A stretch of DNA of 64,000 nt from Cyanidioschyzon merolae. Taxonomy: Eukaryota. Location of the stretch: assembly GCA_000091205.1 (NCBI GenBank), contig AP006487.2; one strand, written 5' to 3'. Within the stretch, counting starts at the first letter, position 1; every line of letters starts with the position of its first letter. The position numbers were made by a program, and so were the translations under genes. This document shows positions 1-19,104 of the stretch, piece by piece. Below the pieces are notes generated by a model that was not told the DNA's origin, made no database searches, and saw only the letters and a program-made list of their open reading frames with translations.

Positions 1-3000
1 CCCCCCATTCCCCCCATTTGCACGAGTCCTCGATGCGCGGTCTTCTCGGAGATTCGTTTAACGGCGCCCAGCCTTGTTTGCGTTGCTTGCCCATGGCTTT
101 CTCTTGTGGAATTGATTTCACTTGGCATTGTCCAATCATTGCTATCCACTTACATTTCAGCTGTGGTCGATAGCCGCAGTCGACACTTCGACTTCCAGTA
201 AACGGTATTTTGGAATGTGACTTAGACATCCGTAGCGATACTGGAGACCAATCTTCTGCTTACTTATACCTATTCCGCTTACTATCCAGCTGGTATAGTT
301 TTGTTCAAATCCGATAGGTTTCAGTTTCTTCACGTTCAGCACTCTCCATTCTGTCAGCTTACGTCTTTCTATCTCTTTGCCATTTTATTCCTCGGGCTCT
401 CTTTGATGACGTTTTGTACTTCAGCCTTCCTTTTTCTGCCACCCAGGGAGTATGAGCTTCTGCTGAATTTCGCCGATGGCCTACGATTCCGTAGCCATGG
501 TGTACTGCCCGACTCTATTTACATCGGTAAAGTGCTGTGAAACAGTTGGTATCGGTCGTTTTCTTGTTTTTGTATTTCTTGGCCTGGTGTGAGCCTTGTC
601 TTTATGTCCAGGACGCATGGCCCGAAACTGCATTTTCCTTCTATGCCTTGGTTTTTCTGTGCGTTTGCAGCCCAGCGCGCCTTGGCGTCCCGGGTTGACC
701 GCCCAGACTCCTTCGAGCACCAGCATGTTTCACGGTTCGGATGACGTTACCTTCTTCTCACATGGCATTTTCTGGTCCTTGCGAGTTCTTTGTATGGTGC
801 TTCAATACTCTTCTTTTGTTGCATCTTTTAGCGCCCAACATTTGGATTTCGCAGCAGTAAGTATATGCATTTTTCTTTGGCGGGTTATTTCATGTAGGTT
901 GGACGTTGTGCGTTGCTTAATCCATGTAGAATGTCATCTCATATTCATCATGGATTCCAACGCATTGCGCTCTCTTTAATGTTTCTGGGCAACAGTGTAC
1001 GATTGCTGTTTTCTACTGAACGATACTGCAGTCGCGGGTACTTCTGTGTTGTCCATTGGCTGCTATTGGAACTTTTACCTATGTCGCACTAGTGCATGCA
1101 TTGTATCGACTGCGATCGACTCACCGATGATCCATATTGCCTGCGTTCCGCTTCCGACATATTCTCCATCGTCGGCCTCTGGAATCTGCGAGGAGGACAA
1201 ACTGTTCCACCATTTACATTTTGCTTCTCGGGCTTCAGGTTGCAATCACTGGAATAGATATCGAATGCTTCGTGGGCTCCTACTCTATTTGAGTCTGTAT
1301 ATACACTATTACATACTCTGTCACCCTTTTTTATGCGCAAGATAACGCACAATACCATACCGCTTAGGATAACTGTGTGGCAGCAAATATGAGAGTCAAA
1401 ATTTAGGAATAAACATTCGGTCCAGGCGTAGACTTTCAGGCACAAGTCATTCAATCCTGATTTACCATCGATGCATCCACTGCCCCGACGGCTCATGCCC
1501 GTGAAACTGGAATCCTTGGCTTCCATTCCGATATCCTCTTCCCGCACTAACCCCATATGTGCTCTCGAAGTGGATCATCACCAGGACCTTATCTTGATTA
1601 CAGTACTGCGAGCTGCTATGCAAGGTTTTGCTTTTGTACTCGGTGCCAGGCTGCTATCGCTGCACAAGATGCCTGATCATGCATTTTCTCGTTGCGTACC
1701 CCTATCGGTCCAAAATCACTATTCCAACCATCATTATGCAGACTGACAAGCTCTTTTGACCACTTTCAGTATGCCAAGTCTATTGACTATGACAAACTAC
1801 TGCATTAGCGATCCATTCACCTCATCTGCAAGCACCTACTTCATGGCCGCCACGAATGAAGCGTAAATTTGATGTTCCGCCCGTCCACAGCTGGTACTAT
1901 CATTCGGCTATCATCATGACACCTCTGGTACCCTTTCTGCCTAGGGTTGCATCTTAGATCCGTCGCACCGGTGCTCGCAAGCGTGCCAGAGCACAACGCA
2001 CGCCGTCTCTTGCGACACATGCGACCCGGGTCAACCAACGAAAACACCGTCAACAACCAAGAGCCCCGATCGCGCCGGCTATTGTTGCCTTCCGTCTACA
2101 CTCAAAGCGATCCTGGTCGGCACTGCAGGGTCTCGCTAGTTCAGGTCAGCATCCAGGTTGGCGTCGCTTATTAAGATCATGTCTGCGAAAAGCACCTCAA
2201 TCCTTTACACTATTAGTCGGTGGCCGCCCCGTTAAGATATTGCTGCGATGGCGTTCATATGATCAAAGAAGCCGCGACTGTGTCAATCGTGAAGCTTGAG
2301 ATCTTTTTTATTCGATACATCTTATTCTGCATCTCGGTGTCTTTCTTAACAGGAGGACAAGTCTCCGTTCATCGGCAGTAGTCTCAATCGTCGGGGATCT
2401 CGCCACGACCGTGCACACATTCGATAGGTACGGTTATAAAGTAAGAGCTCTTAGGTTGCCTTCAATTCTGCTCGCCGTGCTGCGGTAACTCTCACTTTGG
2501 CTAGATTCGCCCCCTGGATCTCGCTGTGCGCTCTATCCTGCCTCTACGCTTTAGCACGCTTGCGGCATTTCCATGGTCTTATAGCTTACTTGCGCCCTCT
2601 GCTTGGACTCATTTTCTCGACAACAAGCCCAAATCGGGACTGGATCCCAACACTGCGCTACAGTCCTTCTTGTACACGTTTTGTCCAACAGAGAGCAAGC
2701 AAGAGTCTGGGAACTTCTGAGACGACCCTTCCGCATTTGGAGCAGGCAATATGCGCTTTCGATGCTAGAGCTGTACATGCGCTCTGATGCTGGTAACTCT
2801 GCGACTTGCTTACTCAGCGACGCTGCTGCAGATGAAATGGATTCATTGATATGTACGCTTACCCTAGGGATACCGTATTCTGGTGAAATGTTTGTTGCAC
2901 GGATCGAATTGCACTTGCTCTGGAACTACTATTCGTGGGCAGAACCCATGCTAGTACATCAATCCTATACTGCATACATCCGTCTGTGTCGTTGCGGCCA

Positions 3001-3352
3001 AACTCGCTAGTCGCAACCTGTGCACCGGGTTTCCGGGGCAACGACAGCAAAGATTTCCAAATCAACGACGTCGCCGTAAAAGCAATATTCATAGGCACGG
3101 TCGTGCTCATAGGAAATCATTCCTTTACGTTCCGAGAGAGATTTCCTGTCCAGTCGTTCCATGTGTATAGCCTCTGAATCACGACCCGTGGGCAGGATTT
3201 CTGAACACTCTCCGCGCACATCTGCAGCCGTATTCATTTATTCATTCATACGTATTCACTCATCTTGTGTATATGTCTGCAACATTGTCCTAACAGAGGA
3301 TCAGCATAGACGTGATATAGACCTTAAACGACGTAATCGTCAACGCGCATAC

Positions 3353-6058
3353 TCAAGCAGACACTGAAGCTGAACCCGAAACCGATGCTGACGCACTCGC
3401 AGACATCGTCGCAGACACCGCCGCAGACACCGTCGCAGAGGGTGTCGCTGTCGCAGCCACGGGACTCGGAGTCGGTGTTGGACTAATCACCACACACTGG
3501 TTGTTGATGCACTCCTCGTCAGCGCGGCAGCAACGCATCTTGTTCACAAGGTTATCCGAAGGGATCAGGTACGTCCCGCACTGCTTCGTAGGGTCCTTGC
3601 ACACACAGAATGACGGCAGCAGCACCTGTTGTTGTTGCTGCTGTTGTTGCAATTGTTGCTGCAGTTGCTGGTTATTGTTGTTGCTGAACGGGTTGTACGT
3701 ACAGTTCTGCGTCTCGGCGTTGCAGCACTCAGGGCCGCAAGCAATATAGCTCGAGTTCGATACGTTGCCGTTCGTGCCGCTCAGCGAGTTCGACACATAC
3801 CCGTAGGTCTGGCACACGTACTCGGTCATCGGCTGGAAGCACTCGTTGCCGAGCCCCAGGCAGCAACCAGCCTCCAGGCACTGCTGCGGCGAGTAGCTCG
3901 TGCGCTGCGTCCCGTGCTGCTCCCCGTACAGAAGCGTGTTCAGCAGACGCACAAACTGGTTATTGTTGATGTTATTGTTCAGCTGCTGGTTCTGATTCAC
4001 CGCGTTCGTGCACGGCTGGCGCTCAAACTCGCCCACCGCGCACGTCTTCTCGGGCTGGAAGCAGTACGGGTTCGACGCAAAGTCGCTCTGCTGCTTGCCG
4101 TTCTGCACCCATTGGTTCTGCGCCTGCGAGTCGTAGCAGCAGCCCTGGGCATAGCACGTAAACTGGTTGATACCCGCGTTGCCGCACGGCTGGCGCTGCG
4201 CTCCCGGTGACGGGCAGACGGGAACCGGTGCCTGCACCTCCTGCAGCGCTACAGAGGCCTGCGGTGCATGGTCGATGTCGTAGTAGCACCAGGGCGCGAG
4301 GATGCCGTTCGCTGTAGGCTGCCAGCAGCATCCCGGTATCGCAGTGCACTCGTCGGGGTAGATGTAGCTCCAGCCGCAGGGGACACGTTGCGTCACTGGA
4401 ACAGCGCTGCACGCCGCTGAGACGCTCTTCAGGGTGCACGCGTTTGTCTGGGAGTTAAAGCAGCATCCGACTTGCTCGCAAGCGTCCTGGTTGGTGTACT
4501 GTCCTGGAGAGCCGCAGATCTCAATGGTGCAGACTGGTGTAGGTGTCGGCGTGGGTGTCGGGGTCGCAGTAGCAGTTGGCGTAATTGTAGGTGTCAGAGT
4601 TGGCGTTGATGTTGGCGTAGATCGAGGGGTAGGTGTAGGGAACGTTTCTCTCAAAGCGAAGGCATCATTGAGAAAGCCATTTCCGCTAGTGTTTGAGTAT
4701 CCAAATCCGCCAAACATGACCGGATCTGTTCCACTGGTGTTCCAGAAAGCTGGTCCTGCTCGACCGCCGGGAGCAACACTCGGGTCGGACTCGTTCAATG
4801 CCCCGTATACTGCAGCAGCGTTCCCCGTTGAGCTTCCATTAATCCACGCCCATTGACCCAGTTCGATATCGAAAACCCATAGATCGTTCAAAAAAACGAA
4901 ATTCACACGGTCGTTTGCGTTCCCGCCACCGCCAAAGAGCTGCAGATTACCCGATGAGTCTACGAAACTTGAACCCGAGTCTCTTCCTCCAGGATAGTTA
5001 GTCGGTGCGAATTCTCCGAGAGTTCCATATGATCCTGGATTCTGAATCGTGGTATTCCCTGCAATGAAAATCCACGTTAACTGACTTATGTTGTAGACCC
5101 ATAGATCATTCAACAGACCAGGGCCAGCTTGTGAACTGTTTCCGTATCCAATACCACCGAACAACCAGAGATTTCCACCAAGATCTGTCCACGTATAAGC
5201 ATTTCGACGTGCTCCTGGTGCATTCGTGGCATTAGCAACACCTGGTTCACTAAAGTTACCAGGCTCGTTGGGAGCCTGCGATCCGTCTCTGTACGCCCAC
5301 TGGAATGTGGTAGTATTGAATGACCAAAGGTCCGAAAATGATCCTTGATGTAAAGCTTCTCCACCGAACAGCCAAAGCAGGCCATCTGCGCCCAGCCAAA
5401 ATGCCGCGCTATCTCGGCCTCCGGGATTGTAAATTTGGCTGTAGATATCCTTCGGTCCATAGACTGGCATGGCGTTGAAAGTATCATTCCCACCGAACCA
5501 CGTCCAGATTCCCGTTTCAGTATCATACTGCCACATATCGTTCAGGTCGCCAACACCGTTTCCAGTCTTATCGAAGCCGAGTCCTCCAAACAACCAGAAA
5601 TGCTGGTCGTCCGTCTGCCAATACGCACTTCCGTAACGGCTGCCGGGTATATTATTTGGGCTGCCTGTGCCGACTGTGCCATACACTCCCGGTTGGTCGG
5701 CTTCTGAGGAACCCCCAATCCATGTCCATTCAAGTGAGGTCAAGTCGAAGGTCCATAGGTCATTTAGGTAGCTCGCAGATGGGTTTCCACTGCTAAAACC
5801 ACCAAATAAGTAAAGTGTATTTGATCTTCCGACCCAAGCTGCTGGATATTCACGACTTCTTGGGGCACTCCCAGCAGAAGTTTGGTTAAGCGTTCCATAA
5901 GTACCAGGATTATTGATACCCGTCTCTCCACCTATCCAGGTCCAGCTAACCGTACTCACAGGCGACAACGCAGCTACAAGCGACACGGAAAACGTCGCCG
6001 CCAACAATAGACAAACAGCAACAACCAGGCCACGCGCCGGAGAAAGAGCTCGAAACAT
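3353..6058 (-). CDS. Secreted multidomain protein: signal peptide, six Kelch-type beta-propeller blades, Thr/Pro-rich linker, 4-5 trefoil (P-type)-like Cys-rich modules, polyQ/polyN tracts
   Basis: Uninterrupted 901-aa ORF with ATG at 6056-6058. N-terminus 'MFRALSPARGLVVAVCLLLAATFSVSLVAALSP' is signal-peptide-like. Six ~50-aa repeats carry Kelch hallmarks (W.W..G...PG.R...W...LFGG.G...NDLW.FD). Linker 'TPTPTPRSTPTSTPTLTPTITPTATATPTPTPTPTP'. Modules such as 'RVPCGWSYIYPDECTAIPGCCWQPTANGILAPWCYY' and 'QPCGNAGINQFTCYAQGCCYDSQ...NPYCFQP' fit the trefoil pattern R..CG...I...C...GCC[FWY]D...P[WY]C[FY]. CAG/CAA-encoded polyQ and polyN runs. Confidence 0.8.
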   Translation of the reverse strand: MFRALSPARGLVVAVCLLLAATFSVSLVAALSPVSTVSWTWIGGETGINNPGTYGTLNQTSAGSAPRSREYPAAWVGRSNTLYLFGGFSSGNPSASYLNDLWTFDLTSLEWTWIGGSSEADQPGVYGTVGTGSPNNIPGSRYGSAYWQTDDQHFWLFGGLGFDKTGNGVGDLNDMWQYDTETGIWTWFGGNDTFNAMPVYGPKDIYSQIYNPGGRDSAAFWLGADGLLWLFGGEALHQGSFSDLWSFNTTTFQWAYRDGSQAPNEPGNFSEPGVANATNAPGARRNAYTWTDLGGNLWLFGGIGYGNSSQAGPGLLNDLWVYNISQLTWIFIAGNTTIQNPGSYGTLGEFAPTNYPGGRDSGSSFVDSSGNLQLFGGGGNANDRVNFVFLNDLWVFDIELGQWAWINGSSTGNAAAVYGALNESDPSVAPGGRAGPAFWNTSGTDPVMFGGFGYSNTSGNGFLNDAFALRETFPTPTPRSTPTSTPTLTPTITPTATATPTPTPTPTPVCTIEICGSPGQYTNQDACEQVGCCFNSQTNACTLKSVSAACSAVPVTQRVPCGWSYIYPDECTAIPGCCWQPTANGILAPWCYYDIDHAPQASVALQEVQAPVPVCPSPGAQRQPCGNAGINQFTCYAQGCCYDSQAQNQWVQNGKQQSDFASNPYCFQPEKTCAVGEFERQPCTNAVNQNQQLNNNINNNQFVRLLNTLLYGEQHGTQRTSYSPQQCLEAGCCLGLGNECFQPMTEYVCQTYGYVSNSLSGTNGNVSNSSYIACGPECCNAETQNCTYNPFSNNNNQQLQQQLQQQQQQQQVLLPSFCVCKDPTKQCGTYLIPSDNLVNKMRCCRADEECINNQCVVISPTPTPSPVAATATPSATVSAAVSATMSASASASVSGSASVSA

Positions 6059-8826
6059 CTCGTTCGACGCTCTCTCAGTCCAATAAATACGGATATTTGT
6101 TCTTTCTCGAGTGAATATATCTTCACTATTGTTTTTTCGTTATGGCCAACACGAACGTAACCGCCGTGTGTTGTGAAAGCCAGAACAACAACGCACAGCT
6201 TGATAGCGCCAAAAGCGCGAAACGCGCGCGCACTACAGAGGAATTTGAATTGGGGTCATCATGATGCGATGAAGAATTCACGTTGATGTCGAGACTGGAG
6301 CGTAACGGACGTAGGGAATTCGGGGTACATAGTCCGAAATATCCAAGTTGAGAGAGGTACTGAGAGCTATATATAGGCTAGTGGGATTTCATTCGAATGA
6401 GTAACTCCCGAGTACTGCTCCTTCCGAGTGCCAGTCAGCAGGGTTCAACAGACTATGGCTTTGGGTAAGAAGGATAGCGGATAATGAACTATCGGTTACT
6501 GAGCTTCGTCTGTCAGCCGAAAGGCAGATGTATTCCTAAAGCGATTCATCTATCTTAAGTTTTCGCAAGACGATTGTGGTGGAAGTATTCCGTTTTACTG
6601 TTTGTGTTTAGCAGTCCTTTTCTGGTGGAGACAGCCAGGCAGAGTACATGGGAGGTTTGTCTTCCTCTGTACCATTGGTGTTTATTTTATACAGAAAACA
6701 TCGAATAATGAGCTCCTATATCTCTGTTGCGAGGAAACCTAAAAAATATCGCTCGAAAGGAAAATGGTCTCTGCTTAGGGAGTGGATGTCGTCGTTCGAA
6801 GTGACAGGCATATACGCGTACGCATGTTTGGACATTCAACGTACAAAGCGAGAACTCCTATGTCTTTTGTTCATCGAACCTCATTCGGCCTATGCTAGGA
6901 GCCATGTGTATCAACCGTGGCTCGCAAGCCTTACATCACCAAGCATTTCCAGGGATGGTGCAGACCAGTGATCCGTGGAGGATGCTCTCCCGATCGGAGA
7001 CTTCTTGACGTTTCTTCCAATTCTCCGACACCGACTCCATGGTGTCTACCTTTACATCTGCGACCTGCAAAACAATCTTCCGTTGCTGCAAATGACTCTA
7101 CCTACATGAGTGTCAGCCTCTCGGTATTGGGCCTACCCCATTTTATCTCGGTACCAATCAATACCTGGTCTCGCTTCTCAGATTGGATACTTGTATGGAC
7201 TTTGGAAACGCATTAGTCTGCGTTGGTCTTTCGACAGCAGCCAAGAAAACCCTCCGAAGTCTGCGGGTCCGTTAATCGACATCGGATCATTCGTAACTGC
7301 TTGATCAGGATCGCTTAATATGTATCGGCTTTTTTAAGACGGAGCTTAGTCTCTTGAAAGATCATATTCCCAGCGGCATCTTTCCGTAACTATTTTGGTG
7401 AGTAGCAAGCAATTTAGAGGACCAGTACAAATCTTTGGCTACCCGACAGTTTCCCCGGCAAGCTCCAGGAACGTCTCCGCTTAGTTATCGATCCAACAAC
7501 TAAACATGTCCACCAAGTCTACAGACCATTTTTATCTCGAATTTCCACCTTGCTCAGGCATTTATGCCAGCAATTGTCTCGCGATGTGCTTTTCATATAG
7601 CACATTCCCCAGCGCGCATCCTATTTCCCAGAACTCTCTACCCAGATACTTTGCCAAATATACCTTGTTCTGTTTTCTCGAATTACTAGCACGAGGCACG
7701 ATCACCGTTTCTGTCAGTCAGCGGAGCCATGATTCAATGCCTGGGCCTCTTGCATTGATCTCTGTTCGATGCCTCGCTGCTACCGCCTCATCGGAGGCTA
7801 TTTGGAGTTTCTCGCATGTGAAGGCGCTTTCAAGAGTGGAGAGCTTCTTCATGCTACTATTCAGCCTCTGCAATATTGTGCACAATCTAGCTTTCGGACT
7901 GCTTGCGTGGTTCAGCTGGTTACCCTGCTGTATTCTGTATGGAGAGAAAACAGAAGCTCAATCCGTTCTTGCAACTCAATGTATTTGCCAGTAATCTCCG
8001 GCAGTAGATGATAGAAGCCGGAAACTTCCCTCTATTTGACAATTTACCTTCTTGGCTGAATCTGCCTCGAACCGAAAATTTCTGTAGAGATGGTGGTTCC
8101 TGTTTCCTTGTCGTGATGGCAGTGATGAAACACGACCCATGTTGCTCTTCTTCAGCACTGCTTTCCCAGTATGCTGGGGGGCGCCGTTTGTCAGCATTGC
8201 ACCCTGGTAGTCGAGCACCTTCTAGCTCAACGCTCTGTGAAATCCGGTCGGCTTGCGCGGACTAAGGACATATCCTAGTGCAGCTTCCGGATATTACGGC
8301 CGTCTACGTCAAAAAGAGAGACTGCTCTGCAACTCGTCGAACCGATTCATCTTTGGAAGGGGCCATACGTCGCTTTCCTTGTACCCGGGCAGCTCTTACG
8401 GGCCAGGAAAACCTGATTCGATGCATCTGTCTCACGCCCGTAAAAGCAGCATCGGATGCATGTCATGGTCAGTTCCAGATCCCCTATGGGCTCCAACAAT
8501 AAATGTCCCCAATTCGGAACGCTTTACCGTACACTCCAGGAGGTATGCGCTATCTGCAGTGGCCACACATCTGCTCTACTCTCATGGACGACCACTTTCA
8601 GCATATTCTGGCCCATTCAATGGCAAGCAGTTCATAGTTACTGCACTAATTATCACATTTTGGAATATGCTTTTTGGCTCGCGAGACGCTTTTGGTACAT
8701 CCCTTCAGGAGGAATGCCTTCTCACCCGTTCACCATACGATAGTGAATACAGCAGGCCGTCTCATCGCTACACCGTTGCCCCTACATCCGTCCCTGATGC
8801 AGCGGTCTGCGCTTCGAAGGCGCCTC

Positions 8827-9908
8827 TCATCTTCGAAGCCAACACACTTTATTCAGGAAAAACGTATCCGACTTGAGACCTCGCCGCCGCAACGTCTGGT
8901 CGATCAGATCAAGGCTCAGTTCGTAAAGCTGATCTGCCTTGTCGATTTCATACGTTGGTTCAATGACCTGCGGTTTCGTCTTGTCTCGACCTTCCGTATA
9001 TTTGCCACGCCACTGATAATACGAGCCCGAGTCAGAGAACCGTCCCTGGGTCGCCATTTCGGCTACGCGGCGGCTGGCCCCATCATTCGGAACGTATTGC
9101 CGAGTGATGTACTTTTGAAGAATCGGGAAGAAGACGTAGCGGAACCAGCCACGCTTTTCACGGAAGAGGTTGCTATCGGCGACACATCCCGGGAAAATCG
9201 CTACAGAGGTCACCCCGTCGCGGCCGTATCAACCACTAAGCGCCTTCATTGTCAACACGTTCGCCGCTTTGGCGTCTTTGTAGGCTTATGTGGGCTCAAA
9301 CGGACCACTGTCCACCATGCCCGTCGTCTGCGGATCAAGCCCCGCGGCTAGACCCAACAAATCACCGAGACGAGCCTGCGGGGAATCTTTCCCGGCAACG
9401 AATTCGGCGAATGGGTCTGAGTCGTCAGAAACACAATGCGCCCGCGCGATATTTTCAGCTTCGGCAACAGCTCCCGACAGAGAAGCAAATGGCTCAGATG
9501 GCAAACCTGTATGGCCTTCTCGATGCCGTCCACCATGAAACGCGGTTTCTTGTACCGCGGATGCTATATTGCGGCATTGCAGATCAGCGCATCCAGGTGA
9601 TCAACGCGCGCTACTCTCGATAGCCCTCTCACAAACTCCAACACAGAGGCGAAATCAGCCAGATCACAATACAGCACTGTATAGGCGTCCTTTGGAAGGT
9701 TCACGCTGTTTGCTGCGCGTTCCGCCGGATCAATGTCACGACATGCCATGACGATATGCCAGTTGCCCTTGTTGATCAGAGCGGAAGCTGCATACAGATC
9801 GACTCCAGAGGACGCGCCGGTGATCACGGTGATCTGCGACTGTTTCGGACCTATACGAAGATGTAGCGCGTGGTGTCGGCGCGCTACAGGCGAACGCTGC
9901 ATTACCAA
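8827..9908 (-). pseudogene. Light-dependent protochlorophyllide oxidoreductase (POR)-like short-chain dehydrogenase, disrupted by two in-frame stops and one frameshift
   Basis: Four minus-strand ORF pieces (9564-9908, 9348-9536, 9286-9504, 8827-9213) align colinearly to POR: 'VITGASSGVDLYAASALINKGNWHIVMACRDIDPAERAANS' (POR GKWHVIMACRD signature), 'CHLSHLLLCRELLPKL', 'PQARLGDLLGLAAGL', 'IFPGCVADSNLFREKRGWFRYVFFPILQKYITRQYVPNDGASRRVAEMATQG'. Pieces 1/2 and 3/4 are each in the same frame, separated by a stop (TAG at a conserved Tyr position near 9565). Pieces 2/3 differ by a 1-nt shift in a 'gggaaag' run near 9385-9395. Confidence 0.6.
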
Positions 9909-10443
9909 AGGAAGCGGATGCTGACAGTGGTGACGATGTCCAGCTGCGAAGCACCCGTCACGTGGGGTACGCAGCGGGAACCGTGCACGAGTTGCAGCGC
10001 GCGCGCGAAAAATGTGTCTTTCCTAGTACAGCGGAACAGAAACAAAACGAGCTTATACTTTCTTGGATTAAGTCAGCTCCGGTGCGAAAGCCTCCGATTA
10101 CGTCACCAACTGGAGAGGTTGCGTATGCGTGCTCAACCAGTCAAAAACTTTTTTGCGTAGCTACACGACTGATCGCCCGTCAGTTGCACAGAATCCGAAT
10201 TCGACCTCCCGTAAACTGCATCGCGTTGAGCGCAACTCGCGTAAGCCCTCTGTGTCCATTGTAGAAGCTAGGCAAAACTCTAAGTTTTCTGAGCAACAAT
10301 CTCGCCAATACTAGTCGCTAGGCGCTTCGCAACGTTGAGCTCGGAGATCACGGCGGTCGTAGATGAACTTCATCGTAGCTCGCCTACGAATAACGTAAGG
10401 GAGGTGAAAGGGGGTTTTCTCCGGTGGTATGTTATTTTACAAG

Positions 10444-10530
10444 CTTCGTCAGTTGGAGACGATTCGCCTAGGGCGGGTTTCTCTCCACCATTGTACACCG
10501 CTGGCGTCGTTTGACTCTAGAACGGCGTTT
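10444..10530 (+). repeat. Solo copy of the ~85-nt 3'-terminal block of the Fanzor-like element (candidate transposon right end / omega-RNA-like region)
   Basis: About 80% identical, same orientation, to 13835-13920. It includes the shared core 'ggcgtcgtttgact(c)tagaacggcgtttg'. No upstream nuclease ORF is recognisable here. Confidence 0.5.
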
Positions 10531-12656
10531 GTTGTTGGCGGTGTGGGCTCGATGTACGGGTTAGGCTCTTGAAAATAATCTTATAGAGTAGACTAGAGTA
10601 CGTTAGGCGCTTTTGTCGGGTTCCTCGATCGCGCCAGGCGAGATGCGTCGGTCAAACGCCGTGCTACGTATGGACGCTCTATATGTGATATGCCTCTACC
10701 AAGATCGCCGTATCCGGAGGACGAGGCAGGCACCATAAGCTAGACAACGACGGCAGCATGCAAATGGCTTGAACGCTCATCAGTACGAGGCCGTGACGCC
10801 CGGCAGAAGCAAAATTCGGCTCAGTCCCCTATTCCAGCGTCCGTTCAGTATGCATAACAAGCACCCGGATAAAACGTATATCCGTGTTCAGGAATCCTAC
10901 CGCGCCTTTTTTTCCGATCAATAAAACTAACAGAAATCCTATCGAGTAGAGTGCTGGATACCTCATCCGCACGAGCGCAGGATACTACGGTGGCTACGCG
11001 TATGCTGGAATCATCGCGGAGTTTCGTGCCGGGCTCCTGCATCTCTATGTATGCCACTGCGGTGCTGCGATGGGCAGTAGCTTCGGCACCAGCGACAGAG
11101 TCTATAGCAAGAAATTATTCTACGTGAGTTTTCGATCTAGGACACTTGATTTCCGCTGCAGCGCGATGCGAACACGCATGTCCCAAGGCGGGGCGTCGGA
11201 CACGTGTCCTTCATCGATCGGTGGGGCGTCTCGCGCGGTGCGTGCATCGCGCCGGTGAGCGCAACTGGGAGATCGGGCAGGCATGAAACACGATGTGCAT
11301 GCCGTTGTGGAAGGGAAACGTGATCTCGATCAGAAGCGTGTTGTTCTGCTGTAAATATTTTTATTGCGTTGAGTTCATAGCAGAGTACGGCTTTTCAGTT
11401 TATTTCTGTTTCAGCCCTAAAACGAGTCTAGTCAAGCGTCTTGTCGCAGTAAATAACTGAAGGGTTCAAAGAGTGTTTTTTCTCAAAAAAACAAAAAAAG
11501 GAAAGCTATGAAAAAGCAAGTCGACGATCCAGGGGGGCCCGGAGTCGCCAGCTGCCAAAAAAACAAAAAAGAATACCGAACCCAGAAGGAAAGGTAGAGA
11601 AAAAGGAAGCAAAAGGTGGAGGCCCCACGACGAAGGCGCCAAAAAGACAACTGTACAACGAGATGGTGGTGAAAGCCTGTCTTCTTAAACACTCCATGGA
11701 TCCGTACAGGGAAAAGTTGCGAGACGCTATCAAAAAAGTGCTGCGTCATACTCCAAAAGTATTGCCAAGGCGTCGTCAGGACTGATGCATTTGGCGGGGA
11801 AGATGTATCGAGATGTGACGCACATGGAAATAGTCAAGATTTTGGACGAGTTTTTCGACAAGACTTTTATTCGACACCTGATGCTTGGTAAAGAGGAAGC
11901 GCGGAGTGAAAATGGGCGGATGCACGTCCTCCACGAAAACTTCGCCAAAATCCGCTTCGAGGGTACTCGATACAAGGGCGACGCGGATATTTACATATAC
12001 GGGGCGATGAAGTACCTCACGAATCTGCAGAACCATTTGACAACAAACCTCGAACGTTTCATGATACGCGCCGTGGTTGCACTCTACCCGGGCATCTCTT
12101 GCAATAGGAAAGGGGCGATGATCAACGGCATCACGAATGATCGCAAGCATGAACATGAGATCGAGTTCGTCGACGTGAAGGCGTCAAACAAGAGCACGAA
12201 TGAAGGTTCTGTAATCCGTGCGGTTCTATATGAGCACCGTGCGGTACTGGGTCTGGCGAATCCAAAAGACGTGGTATCAGACTTGAAAAGGATGAAGTAA
12301 GATACAATCGCCTCGTCCTGCGGTATTTCATGTTTCTGGACCGAGAGCTCGAACGCGAAGCGGAGATGAAGCAGAGTGAAAAGACATATGAAGAGTGGGA
12401 GAGACGGAAGGCTTCCCTAATGGGTAAGCGCTTCAACGTAGTTCGAATGCGCAACATCAAGTCACATTTCGTGACTATCGACTCCAGAGTCCTTTACGGC
12501 ATCATGAAGGAGATCCGTCCGGAGTTCAATGTTAGCAGGGAGGAATTTTCCGGTGAAAACCGAGAGACGTGCTGAAAGAGTATCTTCGATTTCAAACGTC
12601 TCAAAGTGAGCGAACAAAAGGTATTCACTGGGTTGATCTAAACCGATGGAGTAGCC

Positions 12657-14623: not shown

Positions 14624-17497
14624 TCAGTTCGATAAATCAAGCTCGAGTTCGAGTTTCAGAAGAGCACCGACATGCTCAGCTCGCAAAGAGTCGAAAGCAT
14701 ATGGTCCCGGAAGTAACACCCACCAGTACTGGAGGATGTCCCAGAGTAAAAGTCGATCGTCCGAAGACGCCGGGGCGCTTGCGCTCACCTCCGCATTCCT
14801 TTCTGGGGAGGCTCGCGAGCGCGCCTGTACATTCACAACGAACGGCCATCGCTCGCAAAGCTCCTGCTGCAGCTGGTTAAGTGCGGACCAAACTTCATTG
14901 CTGCGATCCGCGACACCTCCTGAAGACTCTGGGCATATCGCCGCCCAGTCTACGATTTGACAGATCGCACCACTGTCCGTCGTCAGGAAGACACTGCACT
15001 GCGGAAAGCATCGAGCCATCCTTGTCCGCTGACTCGCGTCGCCTTCTGCGAATGGCAGTGGAGCAGACGCGACTTGTACAGAGGCAACTGCACCGCCCAA
15101 TTCGAGTGTGAGTCCATCGTGCCTCCAGCGACATAATTCATCAACGATGGTGGTATCACGTACGCCTGCCGCTCCATCGAGAGCCCTTGAATGCAGTTCG
15201 AGTTCATCAGGAATCTCTGATCCGGGTCGATATCTTCGCTGCTGCTGAGCACAAGGCACCTCTTCGAGGAATGCGACCTGGGCGTCGTTCGCAACGAGCA
15301 ACATCCTATTTGGCAGGAACCTGACTCTGCGGACTTCCTCTATGCCCGTTTGGATAACTCCTAACGAGCGCAACACAAATCGGCATGTCGCCGAGGCCGT
15401 CTCCGCAGCATGGTACTGCACTAGTCCGACCTGGTACAGGGTGTCGCCACCGAGTGTGACTACGACCTGAAGGAGCGATGTCGAGCCAGATTTGTCTCTG
15501 GCTTCCGTTTGCGCATGGTCACATTCAAGCAAACGCACCGTGATATCAGCCCAGCGGTGCGGACCGTCTCGTTCTAAACACACACCGGTCCAGGCTGGAT
15601 CCACCAGGAACGGTAGCTGTCCCTCCGCCGCCGCCGCCGCCGCAGCAGCAGCAGCAGCAGGCGCATACACTGCAAGCGTACTTGACGCGTCTACACCTAG
15701 GTACATCCGCGTATCCCCTCGCATGCATATCTCGCATGATGGAATCGGTGTCATTGCGAGTATGTCCAGTTCTGCTGGTGTAGATGGCGGCTCCTCCATC
15801 TGTTGCTGCTCTTGTAAAGGCCTACTCGCTGAAGGCAGGTCAAAGCTGCCAGCGATGCAGGGCGGATTCCTGGAAGCGTATCGCTGCGCAACGCGGTGCT
15901 CCTGTGCCGCGGGATTTTCCGGCAATTTGCACGGTAATGGACCATACGAACGAAGGTGCAGGAGACGCTGCCGCTGCTGCTGACGCCGCCAACGCCACCA
16001 CCACCACCAGAACGAGAACCATGAAGATGCGTCCTCCGAATTAGCATCATTTTGGCGCAGGGGTGCAGATAGCTCATCAAGACACGCTAGGCGCCACGGT
16101 TCTTCAGTGGTATGGTAAAAATGCCAACGCACGACTTGCAACCGCCCATCACCGCTCACAACAAAAGACTCGCCCATCCATGAGACCAAATGGTCACTGC
16201 ACGTACCATATTCGAGAAGCGATTCCCCAGTGTACTGACGATGGCTCGGTAGAATCGCGCTTGGGACACCCCAGGCAGCTAAAGGATCGAAAATCACGCG
16301 CCGAACTCGCATCGCCCGGCGGCCGAGGGCCGCATGTGCATCCCAGAACACCCTCCATAGCTCGTGTCCTACAACGAGAATATCTTCTGGATGCGCGGGC
16401 TGACCTCCACAAATGCGATAGAGTTTCAGGGGCTGGTGGCTAAGGTGCCATTTGGCATAGAGATGCCCCGTAAAGCGGTCGAGCTGGACAAGCCAGCCGC
16501 TACGAAGCGAAACCAGCAGAGCGCTACCCTCGCGAACGCTGTACACAGACTCCACCGCCGCAGCGTCCAAGTCGCCGGTTGCCACGTGCGGCATAATACG
16601 GAGTCGACGTTTCACAGCCGCCGTCTGCTCGTCGTAGTCGAAAATGTAAAGAGCGCCATCAGAAGACGCCACAGCGACACCCTGCAGGCGCCGATCTGAC
16701 GCAATTGTAGCGAGAGCTGTCACCTCACTACGATCAAAGAGATCACATCGACAACGCTCCGTAAGTGAGGCAGCATCCAACACAATGAGCAGTGGACAAG
16801 TAGCAGTCTCGATCACACAGGTAAGCGCCAGCACGGCCTCTGCCACGCCCGCAGGCGATGCGTCGGCGTGCGTGATCTTTCCTGGTGCCTGCCAACGTGA
16901 CGTCACGAAAGCACGCAGTGCGCTGCATGCGCCATGCGTGCCATGCACTGCGTGCGGCTCTGCGATGCGTGCGACGCAATCGCGCGCTACGATAACGGAT
17001 TCATAGAAGCACGCAATGATATCGATGGATAAGGGCCACGAGTCGCTAACGTCCTGAGCCGTCCGTTGCGCTTCGTCAATACGTAACACGACTGGTGCTC
17101 CTAAATCATCCTCTTTGTTAAAGACACGGTCACAGATAAGTAGGTAGCGGCCGCCTTGTAGCCAGAACACTCTGGAGGACCCCGTCAGCAGATTCGGATC
17201 GCTCTCCAACTGTAGCGTGGCATAGTCTCCGCAATCCAGTGACGACAAGTGCACACCATCAGAGCTCTGATGCAGCATACAAAAGCTCGCGTGGTGGCTG
17301 CATCTCTTTTGGAGGGGCGCTTCGCGCGAGGGCCACGGCTCCCGTCCGCGCAGGCCGCTGTCGATGAGGACGGGCCCCCGCCGCTCGGTGGTGCGCCACC
17401 TGCGCGCAAGCTCCGGTGCGCCGCGTGAACGAGACCGAGAGCCTGCGGACCGGGACAGAATAATCGTGAAGCAGGGGCCAAGACTCCGGAGGTCCAC
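14624..17497 (-). CDS. C-terminal part of the same large protein (possible beta-propeller plus alpha-solenoid architecture; nucleoporin- or tethering-factor-like, unassigned)
   Basis: 957-aa ORF, same strand, contiguous with 17185-19104. Segments such as 'SSDGALYIFDYDEQ' are propeller-like, followed by a long helical region. No family motif recognised with confidence. Confidence 0.55.
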   Translation of the reverse strand: MDLRSLGPCFTIILSRSAGSRSRSRGAPELARRWRTTERRGPVLIDSGLRGREPWPSREAPLQKRCSHHASFCMLHQSSDGVHLSSLDCGDYATLQLESDPNLLTGSSRVFWLQGGRYLLICDRVFNKEDDLGAPVVLRIDEAQRTAQDVSDSWPLSIDIIACFYESVIVARDCVARIAEPHAVHGTHGACSALRAFVTSRWQAPGKITHADASPAGVAEAVLALTCVIETATCPLLIVLDAASLTERCRCDLFDRSEVTALATIASDRRLQGVAVASSDGALYIFDYDEQTAAVKRRLRIMPHVATGDLDAAAVESVYSVREGSALLVSLRSGWLVQLDRFTGHLYAKWHLSHQPLKLYRICGGQPAHPEDILVVGHELWRVFWDAHAALGRRAMRVRRVIFDPLAAWGVPSAILPSHRQYTGESLLEYGTCSDHLVSWMGESFVVSGDGRLQVVRWHFYHTTEEPWRLACLDELSAPLRQNDANSEDASSWFSFWWWWWRWRRQQQRQRLLHLRSYGPLPCKLPENPAAQEHRVAQRYASRNPPCIAGSFDLPSASRPLQEQQQMEEPPSTPAELDILAMTPIPSCEICMRGDTRMYLGVDASSTLAVYAPAAAAAAAAAAAEGQLPFLVDPAWTGVCLERDGPHRWADITVRLLECDHAQTEARDKSGSTSLLQVVVTLGGDTLYQVGLVQYHAAETASATCRFVLRSLGVIQTGIEEVRRVRFLPNRMLLVANDAQVAFLEEVPCAQQQRRYRPGSEIPDELELHSRALDGAAGVRDTTIVDELCRWRHDGLTLELGGAVASVQVASAPLPFAEGDASQRTRMARCFPQCSVFLTTDSGAICQIVDWAAICPESSGGVADRSNEVWSALNQLQQELCERWPFVVNVQARSRASPERNAEVSASAPASSDDRLLLWDILQYWWVLLPGPYAFDSLRAEHVGALLKLELELDLSN

Positions 17498-19104
17498 GCA
17501 TCTGGAAGATGCAACCAGTCCATCTGACCGAAAAAGTCCCAGCAGAGGATGTTCACATGCGGTCCTTCGCCGAAAGCCACCAGTCCGGCTGCGTCTCGCG
17601 CGTCACGCGGCAATGAAACAGGGTCCCCCGATTGTAGACGGACGCTGCGAACGACTCCAAGATCACACTGGACGAGCGTGCCATCTTGACGGACGAGCAA
17701 TAACTTGAAATCCCCCGTTTCCGGCTGGGATACAGCGCAGTATGCGAGGAACGAGTGCATAGCCGTCGTCTGCTCGTTGTTCGACATTGTGCGGGGTCCC
17801 TGCAATGGACCAAACTGCGGACGTAAAGAGCGTTTCTGGAAACGCAGCGGCAATACATATCGATCTGTGACGACGTAAACCAAACGGTCTCGCGAATCGA
17901 AATCCGAGGCATTCGAATTAGAGAAATCGATAGCTGTAGGGTCCGGATGAAAGGGATGCGATTCAATGCCGAGTACGTACGCAGACGGCAGCGCCGCCCG
18001 GAAGCACATGGTGCGGGCATCGTATCGAAGCTGGAGCCCGCCGTGGCTATCGTGCATCGATGCCGGCTCTTCGTCATCCTGTATCAATGCTTCTTTGTCA
18101 CCACTCTTCGGCAGTATTTCCTCGTCTTTCAGAATCGCTCCGTGATCACTCGCTTCTAGACGGGTAAGCAGAGCATCTTGATCGGCCCCTTGGGCACATC
18201 GCACGTCGTCGACAAAGATAGAAAGCAGGATAGATGGTGCATGGTCTTCTGGGGCCCGCCACGCTGCACTGCGCAGCTCACGTTCGATCGAAGAAATGCC
18301 TATTGTGATCGTCACTGTACCGCATTCAGTGCATTCGTCTGGGCGATAAGGCACGGCGAGACTGCAGACGTCGTGCACGAAGCCCGGCGCAGGATAGGCC
18401 ATCCACGCGAGCGGTACAAGCGGAGCATCGCAGCTCTCAGTTTTTGAAAGAGGCACCGGTGGCGCCACAAGTTCCCAGTTAGGCCCAGCCAAGGCCAGCG
18501 GTTCGTTTTCTGCTAACCAGCATCTGATGCCTTCAAAGCCAAAGAACATGTGATGTCCTATATTGAGCAACAAACGATCGAGACTCTCCGCATAGCGGAG
18601 TTGGAAAGTCGTTGGCAGCTCCCTTTCGATCGCTTCAGCCAGCTCATTGCACTCAGTGTAGAGCGAGCGGGAGGCGAAGCGCTGAAAGAACCCCACTTCA
18701 AAAGCGGACCCTGTCGTGTCCGTCGGGTTTCGAGCGCAAAACCACAGTGCATGCAAGACGAGCCGCCTATCCAAGCACAGCAGGACGTCGCCCTTTTTCA
18801 AGGGAGGATCACTACACCGCGCTTCGGCCGACTGCGAGTGAGGCGCTCCTGATGAACGTCGCCTAAGCGGCACCGTACACGCAGCCAGGAGCTGCATATT
18901 GATGTTTTGTCTATGCACCAGTCGAGGACCGCGTGAAGAAAAAGCCCATAGTGCCAACCAAGATCCGCTTACGATGACGACGTGATCTGCACCTGTTGAA
19001 GTCGAAGCAGTAACCCTGAAAGGAAGCACCGTTCTGAGCTTCTCACTAGGGCGACTCGTACGCAGCACAAAACGCGGCCGCTTCCGGTAGGCGCTCGGCG
19101 CCAT
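17185..19104 (-). CDS. N-terminal part of a very large conserved-looking protein of unknown function (continues in 14624-17497)
   Basis: 639-aa ORF with ATG at 19102-19104 and coding-like composition. Overlaps the next ORF in another frame across a low-complexity Gly/Ser/Arg segment (17185-17497). Confidence 0.55.
   Translation of the reverse strand: MAPSAYRKRPRFVLRTSRPSEKLRTVLPFRVTASTSTGADHVVIVSGSWLALWAFSSRGPRLVHRQNINMQLLAACTVPLRRRSSGAPHSQSAEARCSDPPLKKGDVLLCLDRRLVLHALWFCARNPTDTTGSAFEVGFFQRFASRSLYTECNELAEAIERELPTTFQLRYAESLDRLLLNIGHHMFFGFEGIRCWLAENEPLALAGPNWELVAPPVPLSKTESCDAPLVPLAWMAYPAPGFVHDVCSLAVPYRPDECTECGTVTITIGISSIERELRSAAWRAPEDHAPSILLSIFVDDVRCAQGADQDALLTRLEASDHGAILKDEEILPKSGDKEALIQDDEEPASMHDSHGGLQLRYDARTMCFRAALPSAYVLGIESHPFHPDPTAIDFSNSNASDFDSRDRLVYVVTDRYVLPLRFQKRSLRPQFGPLQGPRTMSNNEQTTAMHSFLAYCAVSQPETGDFKLLLVRQDGTLVQCDLGVVRSVRLQSGDPVSLPRDARDAAGLVAFGEGPHVNILCWDFFGQMDWLHLPDAWTSGVLAPASRLFCPGPQALGLVHAAHRSLRAGGAPPSGGGPSSSTAACADGSRGPRAKRPSKRDAATTRAFVCCIRALMVCTCRHWIAETMPRYSWRAIRIC

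Follow-up and report, generated by a model that had tools for sequence, protein, structure and literature searches.

The fungal FLO and EPA proteins form subtelomeric families of secreted adhesins. Trefoil domains are organized in three loops, which are held by the disulfides 1-5, 2-4, and 3-6. These domains are compact, acid- and protease-stable glycan-binding modules containing three disulfides (PMC7221086). In TFF3, the ligand is contacted by Asp20 (the Asp/Asn directly before Cys2) and Trp47 (directly before Cys6) (PMC7221086). In Cyanidiophyceae, a subtelomeric Kelch+Trefoil (K+T) and Kelch+Hint family was described in the pertinent parts of Nozaki 2007 (PMC1955436), Cho 2023 (PMC9812998), and Plant Cell 2026 (PMC13353863). 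Passages of these papers and of PMC12112623 report the K+T architecture, the Thr/Pro/Ala linker, the signal peptide, and the subtelomeric amplification; the linker between propeller and tail appears in a passage of Cho 2023. The K+T family is the only subtelomeric duplication common to all three sequenced Cyanidiales genera, and one of the few places for trefoil domains outside animals.

Gene identity and chromosome-end position

The window analyzed here is a stretch of 64 kb. It contains an intact, intron-less ORF at 3353..6058 (-), which corresponds exactly to 901 amino acids plus the stop codon. The product is identical in sequence to BAM79243.1 / XP_005535529.1 / M1VFE1. The Plant Cell 2026 data set (PMC13353863) links BAM79243.1 to CME001C in its row 531, and the genome record annotates CME001C / BAM79243.1 as "similar to trefoil factor". 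The complete CDS is CME001C of Cyanidioschyzon merolae 10D, a published K+T family member. The first-pass annotation had regarded the domain combination as undescribed; this was contradicted by the gene annotation and by the K+T architecture in the four papers cited above. The gene itself is a rediscovery, and adds little to what is already known.

Two copies of the C. merolae telomere repeat CCCCCCATT (AATGGGGGG on the opposite strand) were located at 1..18 (+), and these were the sole two matches of a repeat scan over the window (for the repeat unit, see PMC1955436). Therefore, the window starts at a chromosome end. CME001C is the gene nearest to the telomere, and its transcription runs toward it. 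Searching related taxa, as had been proposed, yielded orthologues in Cyanidiococcus and Cyanidium. Their contigs served as a cross-check of the genomic position: the orthologues are terminal, 6.2 kb (Cyanidiococcus) and 5.2 kb (Cyanidium) from the contig end. Eleven C. merolae paralogues bear chromosome-end numbering in the Plant Cell 2026 data set (PMC13353863).

The protein is a Sec-secreted mosaic without a transmembrane segment. Its parts follow in the order of signal peptide, six-bladed Kelch propeller, Thr/Pro linker, and Cys-rich tail with N/Q tracts. Together with the telomere-adjacent location, the signal peptide, the Kelch propeller, the Thr/Pro/Ala linker, and the trefoil tail place it in the K+T family. 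The signal peptide spans roughly aa 1-30 (MFRALSPARGLVVAVCLLLAATFSVSLVAA; 5969..6058 (-)). At this N-terminus, a basic stretch is followed by a 21-residue hydrophobic core, and residues 11-29 give the strongest hydropathy peak of the whole protein (2.64). SignalP 6.0 returned "SP(Sec/SPI)" with 0 TM segments (supplementary file 10 of PMC13353863). The Thr/Pro-rich linker covers aa 472-508 (4535..4645 (-)); measured over aa 467-506, the composition is 40% Thr and 28% Pro. Its length differs among the orthologues. The linker is probably an O-glycosylated extended stalk. Direct reading of the sequence revealed 15 N-x-S/T sequons in the protein, 12 of which lie within the propeller domain. Both the signal peptide and the TP linker noted in the first pass were thus borne out.

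The C-terminal tail (aa 858-901, 3356..3487 (-)) is rich in Ser, Ala, Thr, and Pro. The last 25 residues are Ser/Ala/Val-rich and weakly hydrophobic, with a mean hydropathy of 0.96. A GPI signal would comprise a C-terminal omega site and, after it, a stretch of 15-20 hydrophobic residues; given this low hydropathy and the lack of the whole tail in the Cyanidium orthologues, a conserved GPI anchor is unlikely.

The Kelch propeller

The propeller extends over aa 33-470 (4649..5962 (-)). The LFGG/MFGG motif, the [NS]D[LMA][WF] motif, and the W-x-[WYF] blade opener each occur six times, with a blade length of about 72 residues. A seventh match to the W-x-[WYF] pattern, WTF at residue 102, falls within the first NDLW motif. 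The Pfam Kelch families matched the protein with E values from 3e-31 to 7e-11. AlphaFold2 modeling of aa 33-470 yielded a pLDDT of 95.4 and a pTM of 0.93, with 24 strands arranged as six blades of four. The best structural matches of the model in the PDB were the six-bladed Kelch domains of KLHDC3, LZTR1, KLHDC2, and Keap1 (probability 1.00, target TM-scores 0.68-0.78, identity 13-20%). Four-stranded blades, the GG doublet, the aromatic residues, and a closed propeller were all found, so that the six-bladed Kelch propeller read from the letters in the first pass was confirmed.

The propeller diverges fast, with C. merolae and Cyanidium at 41% identity, whereas the Cys-rich tail is conserved. 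A Cyanidiococcus protein with Kelch and Hint domains carries a propeller 55% identical to that of CME001C and the same TP linker. In a neighbour-joining tree of the propellers (200 bootstraps), the K+T and Kelch+Hint sequences were not separated (53/200 bootstraps).

Trefoil modules of the cysteine-rich tail

Residues 510-855 contain 36 cysteines and six CC doublets, which divide into six 6-Cys modules (M0-M5). All 36 cysteines are invariant in the eight algal sequences compared at full length, which represent three genera; the sole exception is the metagenome copy P0132, which is missing one. For the whole protein, Pfam Trefoil (PF00088, gathering cutoff 21 bits) matched three stretches with E = 8.4e-13 and 48.4 bits. 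The modules were also scanned singly, and their spacing was compared with the trefoil reference C-x9-10-C-x9-C-x4-CC-x9-10-C.

M1 (Cys550-Cys591, 4286..4411 (-)) is a canonical P-type trefoil. It reached 45.7 bits (E = 6e-12) over profile positions 1-42 of 43, and aligned to human TFF3 with E = 2.5e-5. M2 (Cys615-Cys666, 4061..4216 (-)) matched over the full profile length with 31.9 bits (E = 1.2e-7). The spacings of M1 (C-x10-C-x9-C-x5-CC-x12-C) and M2 (C-x9-C-x9-C-x4-CC-x24-C) fit the trefoil, with an enlarged third loop in both. M0 (Cys510-Cys541, 4436..4531 (-)) is truncated and trefoil-like. Its partial match, to positions 12-33 of 43, scored 21.0 bits, which is exactly the cutoff and therefore borderline. 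Its spacing (C-x4-C-x11-C-x4-CC-x7-C) deviates, with 4 residues between Cys1 and Cys2 as compared with 9-10 in a normal trefoil.

M3 (Cys673-Cys740, 3839..4042 (-)) shows the cysteine pattern of a trefoil, C-x9-C...C-x4-CC-x6-C. It deviates through the 43 residues between Cys2 and Cys3 (C-x9-C-x43-C-x4-CC-x6-C), most of which are a lineage-specific insert absent in Cyanidium. Intact M3 gave no match to Trefoil; removal of aa 688-720 raised it to 16.4 bits (E = 0.0085), which is below the cutoff. On this basis, we tentatively place M3 in the trefoil family. Sequence reading and orthologue alignment located an N/Q-rich tract in its insert, aa 688-701 (NQNQQLNNNINNNQ; 3956..3997 (-)), between Cys683 and Cys727.

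M4 (Cys749-Cys786, 3701..3814 (-)) and M5 (Cys818-Cys855, 3494..3607 (-)) are conserved Cys-rich modules with a CC doublet and invariant cysteines. For each, we obtained no Pfam family match and no PDB sequence match at E ≤ 10. M5 carries the conserved motif KQCGTY.IPSDN.VNK. A polyN/polyQ tract (aa 793-811, NNNNQQLQQQLQQQQQQQQ; 3626..3682 (-)) lies between the two modules, from Cys786 to Cys818; Tandem Repeats Finder detected its DNA at 3627-3683. The tract is variable among the Cyanidiococcus paralogues and absent in Cyanidium.

Profile comparison among the six modules with hhalign supported a single pair, M0 and M2 (probability 90%). M1 and M2, which are both clear Pfam trefoils, reached only 20%. 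The test is therefore under-powered, and its failure to support M3-M5 as trefoils carries little weight. The AlphaFold2 model of aa 505-860, built on an alignment of 7 sequences only, had a mean pLDDT of 45 and a pTM of 0.23; it is too poor to be used for a fold search or for disulfide connectivity.

In the tail, M1 and M2 are clear trefoils, M0 is borderline, and M3 is a probable trefoil; M4 and M5 follow as two additional modules of six cysteines each. The first-pass count of four to five trefoil-like modules was slightly generous: P-type trefoils are real here, with two modules clear, one borderline, one sub-threshold, and two without a match. Likewise, its proposed comparison of cysteine spacing with PF00088 came out favorably for M1 and M2 but not for M0 and M3. 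The polyQ/N insertions were correctly placed inside the Cys-rich part. Reassignment to other folds had been named as the counter-evidence to look for; the Pfam scan gave no PAN/apple or CBM match for the Cys modules, and no non-Kelch propeller.

An exhaustive HMMER search with the M0-M2 segment retrieved a cnidarian seven-trefoil protein (E = 2e-30) and trefoils of fish, newt, coral, and a Piromyces GH31 enzyme. A word-indexed search with the same segment had returned only four near-identical hot-spring metagenome fragments, so the distant trefoils were reached through the exhaustive search only. The similarity extends past the cysteines to R-x-x-C-G, P-x-E-C, G-C-C-[WFY], and P-[WY]-C-[FY]. 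As judged from these sequences, the CME001C trefoils look homologous to the animal and fungal GH31 P-domains, and convergence is unlikely. The cnidarian, coral, and Piromyces matches mean that the domain is not limited to vertebrates.

In the alignment of M1 to TFF3, Pro560 stands opposite Asp20, and Trp590 opposite Trp47. The corresponding positions are Pro624 and Tyr665 in M2, Pro682 and Glu739 in M3, and Ile514 and Ala540 in M0. Accordingly, among M0-M3 only M1 retains the stacking Trp, and none of the four has the Asp/Asn with which TFF1-3 hold GlcNAc. Because this residue is replaced, TFF-type lectin activity cannot simply be assumed. CME001C does not fit the features of the TFF peptides as GlcNAc-alpha-1,4-Gal lectins: the contact Asp/Asn is absent, and the protein is a mosaic of 901 aa, 438 of which form the propeller. 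The presence of trefoils in cnidarians and fungal GH31 enzymes and the non-conserved TFF Asp/Asn are corrections useful for work on this family.

Proposed role and comparison with known systems

The Plant Cell 2026 data set assigns CME001C to class K+T and gives it 8-14-fold higher expression in walled diploid than in wall-less haploid cells (306-340 vs 22-54 TPM; logFC 3.04 and 3.86; PMC13353863). The K+T genes are among the strongly diploid-biased secreted proteins. According to the relevant sections of the same paper, expression is biased toward diploids in 13 of 15 TFF-like genes of C. merolae and mostly toward haploids in the Hog genes, and protein makes up 50-55% of the cyanidiophycean wall. 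We propose, with about even confidence, that CME001C contributes, as an N- and O-glycosylated structural protein, to the diploid wall or extracellular matrix, which is largely proteinaceous, through a mechanism that we infer as follows. The heavily glycosylated protein would be built into the wall or matrix. Its trefoil array, compact and locked by disulfides, would be stable against acid and proteases and would tie the protein, by attachment or cross-linking, to glycans or glycoproteins of the wall. On the Thr/Pro stalk, the propeller would face outward and offer a surface for binding. Subtelomeric amplification would supply copy number and variants. The sister Kelch+Hint proteins, with the same propeller-plus-stalk cassette, would instead present it on wall-less haploid cells by lipid attachment through the Hint domain. 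CME001C may not act in the wall alone, since 22-54 TPM persist in the wall-less haploids and some K+T paralogues respond to nickel (PMC12112623). If the wall-matrix role is true, the K+T proteins could help to explain how a wall made largely of protein endures pH 1-2 and temperatures of about 50 °C.

An enzymatic function would make CME001C a secreted copper radical oxidase of the galactose/glyoxal-oxidase type or a NanM-type sugar mutarotase, with the trefoils targeting the substrate. Database labels point this way: the Pfam families Kelch_3 and Kelch_4 ("Galactose oxidase, central domain") match the propeller, many bacterial homologues bear the JGI label "N-acetylneuraminic acid mutarotase", and NCBIfam YjhT/NanM gave weak, partial matches in the propeller. 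Galactose oxidase, however, has seven blades, a Tyr-Cys thioether cofactor, and His/Tyr copper ligands. The CME001C propeller has six blades as modeled, and the cofactor cannot form because aa 33-470 contain no cysteine. A passage of Cho 2023 (PMC9812998) calls the domain "identified as galactose oxidase"; we rejected this assignment on the grounds of the six blades and the missing cysteine. NanM/YjhT was rejected as well. The models remained far below their cutoffs (TIGR03547, 40.2 vs 256 bits; NF010730, 36.3 vs 416 bits), and the match was limited to residues 276-334, about one blade. PDB 2UVK matched CME001C at E = 0.57. Moreover, the structural neighbours at 13-20% identity are protein-binding Kelch domains, and Pfam names such as galactose oxidase are historical labels for Kelch repeats, which give no sign of catalysis. 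The propeller is a six-bladed, non-catalytic Kelch domain, and the enzyme reading is largely refuted and highly improbable. Correcting the two labels, which are unfit for the K+T propeller, may be of use to others.

The same layout of signal peptide, head, Thr/Pro stalk, and C-terminal module would also suit a variable surface adhesin or recognition protein similar to yeast FLO/EPA. Here, the propeller would be the ligand-binding head and the Cys-rich part the wall attachment, while subtelomeric recombination would diversify adhesion, mating or self-recognition, or the interaction with microbes or viruses. The K+T genes lie near telomeres in multiple copies, their domain combinations and linker lengths vary, the propeller diverges faster than the tail, and the life-cycle phase bias differs between family members in the part of PMC13353863 concerned. 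Yet the within-species paralogues are more than 80% identical in Cyanidium, according to a passage of Cho 2023 (PMC9812998), a low diversity for a variation system. Many K+T copies are strongly expressed at once, as opposed to the one-at-a-time expression of classical variant families, and neither adhesion nor aggregation is a known phenotype of K+T genes. We consider this role unlikely. The wording "adhesive or lectin-like surface protein" in the first pass is plausible. The Plant Cell 2026 authors, in the relevant section (PMC13353863), proposed an acid-protective, mucus-like barrier at pH 1-2, with trefoils convergent with and non-homologous to vertebrate TFF. The cells live at pH 0.05-4, TFF peptides act in gastric mucus, and TFF1 and TFF2 binding persists at pH 2.6 (PMC7221086). 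The expression is diploid-biased, and the same section states that the diploid wall is thought to be proton-impermeable. Nevertheless, wall-less haploids, in which K+T expression is low, survive equal acidity. Support for convergence is weak in view of the full-profile match of M1 alone (45.7 bits), the distant M0-M2 matches (E = 2e-30 for the cnidarian protein, plus fish, newt, coral, and Piromyces GH31), the similarity beyond the cysteines, and the occurrence beyond vertebrates. We regard the barrier reading as quite unlikely; its protective component would overlap with the wall-matrix explanation.

Regarding the origin of the wall-matrix candidate, a rather unlikely scenario is a chimera of two origins. 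A Cyanidiales ancestor would have gained, in a single event, a bacterial-type Kelch propeller with 72-residue blades. Joined to a mucin-like stalk, this would have been combined either with the homologous P-type trefoil array, as a wall anchor in walled diploids, or with the autoprocessing Hint domain, as a lipid anchor in wall-less haploids. The passages on the K+T family in the cited literature do not state this scenario, and the Kelch/trefoil passages of Cho 2023 (PMC9812998) and Plant Cell 2026 (PMC13353863) contain no claim of Kelch horizontal transfer. If true, one binding head was re-deployed across the life cycle, and the trefoil domain is older and wider than "vertebrates plus Cyanidiophyceae".

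The known systems resemble CME001C in different parts. FLO/EPA adhesins offer an analogy in organization, being subtelomeric multigene families with an N-terminal binding domain, a glycosylated Ser/Thr-rich stalk, and C-terminal wall attachment; the domains are unrelated (PA14 vs Kelch, GPI anchor vs trefoils). TFF peptides share with M1 and M2 the P-type domain, the six-Cys spacing, R-x-x-C-G, G-C-C-[WFY], and P-[WY]-C-[FY], and are likewise secreted into acidic, glycan-rich surroundings. Unlike CME001C, they are peptides of 60-106 aa that contain no domain other than one or two trefoils; CME001C has Pro at the ligand Asp/Asn, keeps the Trp in M1 only, and has no known mucin partner. The GH31 alpha-glucosidases (Piromyces sp. 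E2 GH31, with six trefoils and CBM26) and the multi-trefoil proteins of the cnidarians Clytia and Oculina are also large, secreted, non-vertebrate proteins with tandem P-type arrays as accessory modules, but they lack a Kelch propeller and have GH31, CBM26, or ILEI as partners.

Secreted tandem-Kelch proteins of bacteria (MAGs of Holophagales, Chitinophagaceae, Flavobacteriales, and Burkholderiales), often with T9SS sorting or Ig-like domains, share the 72-residue blade unit YGT.G....N.PG.R...W.D..GNLWLFGG......LNDLW.Y....QWTW..G, and are 38-43% identical over all six blades. They differ by 12 or more blades (at least two propellers' worth), the bacterial sorting domains, and the lack of trefoils. 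The cyanidiophycean K+Hog proteins (Kelch + Hint, "similar to hedgehog protein"; for example, Cyanidiococcus CCYA03G1141) have the signal peptide, the six-blade propeller, the TP linker, and the subtelomeric location in common with CME001C. They carry a C-terminal autoprocessing Hint domain instead of the Cys-rich trefoil array, and their genes are mostly haploid-biased as opposed to the mostly diploid-biased K+T genes, as given in the section of PMC13353863 on these families. The closest relatives are the other members of the K+T family: CMA001C, CMA142C, CMB162C, CMC005C, CMC186C, CMD002C, CMD191C, CMH282C, CMJ005C, and CMR001C in C. merolae, and the Cyanidiococcus and Cyanidium orthologues. 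With these, CME001C shares the signal peptide, propeller, TP linker, trefoil tail, chromosome-end position, and diploid-biased expression; its S/A/T tail and the lengths of its N/Q tracts are particular to this copy and lineage, and nothing essential sets it apart.

Identity, position and layout of CME001C

The open reading frame at window positions 3353-6058 (minus strand) is unbroken over 901 codons, and its product matches BAM79243.1 / XP_005535529.1 / UniProt M1VFE1 exactly. This entry, named 'similar to trefoil factor [Cyanidioschyzon merolae strain 10D]', belongs to a 528,682-bp record. The Plant Cell 2026 data set (PMC13353863) assigns it to locus CME001C and puts it in class K+T (Kelch + trefoil), with SP(Sec/SPI) and 0 TM segments. 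The window starts exactly with two copies of CCCCCCATT (1-18). This unit is the reverse complement of AATGGGGGG, the C. merolae telomere repeat (Nozaki 2007, PMC1955436). An ORF scan of the ~3.3 kb gap between the repeat and CME001C (1-3352) yielded no second ORF of at least 200 aa. A marked strand asymmetry was observed over positions 1-2000 (AT skew -0.24, GC skew -0.13).

Reading of the sequence recovered all the elements listed in the first-pass annotation: a signal sequence, a six-blade Kelch set, a TP linker, Cys modules and N/Q tracts. The N-terminus consists of a basic stretch and a 21-residue hydrophobic core, which is the highest hydropathy peak of the whole protein. The propeller (aa 33-470) contains six LFGG/MFGG, six [NS]D[LMA][WF] and six W-x-[WYF] blade-opening motifs with a spacing of ~72 residues, and zero cysteines. 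It holds 12 of the 15 N-glycosylation sequons. The linker (aa 472-508) is rich in Thr (40%) and Pro (28%; composition taken over aa 467-506). The 36 Cys residues of the tail (aa 510-855), with six CC doublets, form six 6-Cys modules: M0 (Cys510-541), M1 (Cys550-591), M2 (Cys615-666), M3 (Cys673-740), M4 (Cys749-786) and M5 (Cys818-855). N/Q tracts are located within M3 (aa 688-701) and between M4 and M5 (aa 793-811). The Pfam scan that the annotation had called for recognised Trefoil (PF00088, 48.4 bits, cutoff 21) as well as several Kelch families (E values between 3e-31 and 7e-11). Human TFF3 was aligned to aa 546-599 in a PDB sequence search (E = 2.5e-5). We regard the identity and the architecture, taken jointly, as practically certain.

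The rest of the window carries ordinary housekeeping genes: dynamin, SRP receptor alpha, Met-tRNA ligase, a sodium:solute symporter and a methyltransferase. The dynamin (51136-53487, plus strand) is complete with Pfam Dynamin_N, Dynamin_M and GED; it is presumably CmDnm1 (CME019C), the mitochondrial-division dynamin. Such an identity would agree with a position on the left arm of chromosome 5, and the gene helps to locate the window within its chromosome. Two ORFs on the minus strand share ~310 bases but are read in different frames; one, of 957 aa, starts with GTG (14624-17497), and the other has 639 aa (17185-19104). Two separate genes, a single gene with one of the rare C. merolae introns, or a frameshift could account for the pair. 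Two overlapping ORFs of 207 and 225 aa (8253-8876 and 8674-9351) lie on the plus strand. The Pfam scan gave no match in any of these four ORFs. The published gene table passes from CME001C straight to CME004C (Smt3) across the interval of this second pair.

The propeller and its relatives

The propeller was modelled from an alignment of CME001C and 38 homologues. AlphaFold2 yielded a confident structure (pLDDT 95.4, pTM 0.93) with 24 strands, that is, six blades of four. Foldseek against the PDB retrieved the six-bladed Kelch domains of KLHDC3, LZTR1, KLHDC2 and Keap1 with a probability of 1.00. Their identity to the algal propeller is 13-20%, and the query TM-score reaches just ~0.5-0.6 because the algal blades are ~20 residues longer.

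The Cyanidiococcus orthologue is 68% identical to CME001C over its full length. Apart from Cyanidiococcus and Cyanidium, the best 120 database matches bore a bacterial name or a bacterial accessory domain, such as a T9SS sorting domain. In the bacterial proteins the same 72-residue blade unit is repeated in tandem at least 12 times, and their identity to CME001C over all six blades is 38-43%. The K+T propellers of C. merolae and Cyanidium are only 41% identical to each other, so the C. merolae propeller stands no nearer to that of Cyanidium than to the bacterial sequences (mean identity 39%, maximum 44%). The eight algal propellers nevertheless grouped as a single split in 193 of 200 bootstraps of a neighbour-joining tree. 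This split, together with the low between-genus identity, is what one origin and rapid divergence thereafter would give. The algal propeller may stem from an ancient bacterial source, with which the data are compatible without proving it. The Kelch and trefoil passages of Cho 2023 (PMC9812998) and Plant Cell 2026 (PMC13353863) make no claim of a bacterial propeller origin.

Some paralogues combine Kelch with Hint (K+Hint, 'similar to hedgehog protein'; e.g., Cyanidiococcus CCYA03G1141). The propeller of the Cyanidiococcus K+Hint protein is 55% identical to that of CME001C, and the stalk is common to both. The tree did not resolve K+T and K+Hint propellers by architecture (53/200 bootstraps), which suggests that, inside a species, the propeller-plus-linker cassette was swapped between K+T and K+Hint genes or homogenised across them.

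Trefoil modules of the tail

Each module was scanned singly against Pfam. M1 and M2 matched Trefoil over the full profile (45.7 and 31.9 bits, respectively), and M0 gave a partial match right at the cutoff (21.0 bits). M3 had no match when intact and reached 16.4 bits, under the cutoff, after removal of aa 688-720. M4 and M5 matched neither Trefoil nor any other Pfam family, and PDB sequence searches with M4 and with M5 found no relative. A profile-profile comparison, a method under-powered for modules this short, paired M0 with M2 at 90% probability. The AlphaFold2 model of the tail (pLDDT 45) is too low in confidence for its fold or disulfides to be read. The tail is thus best counted as two full trefoils (M1, M2), a truncated one (M0), a probable one bearing a large insert (M3), and a pair of conserved Cys modules outside Pfam families (M4, M5). 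The domain interpretation of the first-pass annotation was largely right; its figure of 4-5 trefoil-like modules is a little high, with only M1 and M2 clear by Pfam.

The M0-M2 segment was compared exhaustively by HMMER with 1.84 billion representative proteins, which gave 140 matches at E ≤ 1e-3. After the algal sequences, the best matches include a seven-trefoil protein of the cnidarian Clytia (E = 2e-30), multi-trefoil proteins of a coral (Oculina), a pipefish and a newt, and GH31 enzymes of Piromyces that carry six trefoils and a CBM26. Plant Cell 2026 (PMC13353863) states that TFFs occur outside Cyanidiophyceae only in vertebrates. This range is too narrow for the P-type domain, because it leaves out the cnidarian arrays and the Piromyces GH31 matches. 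The similarity at the sequence level makes homology of the algal and the animal/fungal trefoils more likely than convergence.

Family, expression and proposed role

The 36 tail cysteines are all invariant in eight full-length algal sequences (Cyanidioschyzon, Cyanidiococcus, Cyanidium); the metagenome copy P0132 is the sole copy that breaks the pattern, with one Cys lost. The linker length differs between the algal sequences. Neither the N/Q tracts nor the S/A/T C-terminal tail occurs in the Cyanidium orthologues. On this comparison, the absence in Cyanidium marks the N/Q tracts as lineage-specific loop insertions, outside the core. The tail is also unlikely to hold a conserved GPI signal.

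The Cyanidiococcus orthologue is the final called gene of a 714,848-bp contig, 6.2 kb from its end, and the Cyanidium orthologue is the first gene on its own, 5.2 kb in. The K+T gene is transcribed towards the telomere in C. merolae and Cyanidiococcus, and away from it in Cyanidium. The orthogroup table of Plant Cell 2026 (PMC13353863) lists 11 C. merolae members, all with chromosome-end numbers. At the Cyanidium chromosome end, an ABC transporter (9064-11937 of the Cyanidium contig) adjoins the K+T gene; at other Cyanidium ends, arsM was duplicated along with Kelch genes, according to Cho 2023 (PMC9812998). The cargo next to K+T genes therefore varies by chromosome end and species.

The domain combination had been thought undescribed, but the Kelch-trefoil architecture is already known, because four studies describe the family. 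Nozaki 2007 (PMC1955436) mapped 'trefoil factor' genes (T) and 'hedgehog' genes (H) to the subtelomeres. Cho 2023 (PMC9812998) described Kelch+Trefoil and Kelch+Hint genes with a signal peptide and a Thr/Pro/Ala linker, ranked them as the commonest subtelomeric duplications of Cyanidiales, and gave their function as unknown. A 2025 nickel-stress study (PMC12112623) saw some paralogues induced and pointed out their P-type and Kelch domains. Plant Cell 2026 (PMC13353863) counted 15 TFF-like genes in C. merolae, 13 of which are diploid-biased; K+Hint paralogues are mostly haploid-biased. CME001C reached 306-340 TPM in diploids, and 43-54 and 22-30 TPM in two haploid strains. The same source identifies the diploid phase as the walled phase and reports a wall of 50-55% protein.

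The CME001C protein is secreted, modular and devoid of a membrane segment; its gene is subtelomeric, multi-copy and diploid-enriched. We propose, at roughly even odds for the mechanism as a whole, that it is a glycosylated component of the wall or matrix. The disulfide-locked trefoil array would provide acid-stable attachment or cross-linking, and the propeller would be held out on the TP stalk to serve as a binding surface. The K+Hint paralogues may show the same head via lipid attachment in the wall-less state. A variable adhesin or recognition family is a rather unlikely reading. A convergent, TFF-like acid barrier is improbable: its protective part overlaps with the wall or matrix model, but convergence is disfavoured by the Pfam Trefoil scores and the cnidarian and fungal matches. 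An enzymatic function is extremely improbable and largely refuted, since the propeller is neither a galactose oxidase nor NanM. The former was ruled out by the six blades and the lack of a Cys for the Tyr-Cys cofactor; the NanM models, whose cutoffs are 256 and 416 bits, scored just 40 and 36 and matched only one blade.

The trefoils of CME001C differ from the TFF peptides at the lectin site. TFF3 contacts GlcNAc-alpha-1,4-Gal through Asp20 (Asn in TFF1/TFF2) and Trp47 (PMC7221086). The equivalent positions are Ile514 and Ala540 in M0, Pro560 and Trp590 in M1, Pro624 and Tyr665 in M2, and Pro682 and Glu739 in M3; the site is unconserved in these CME001C modules.
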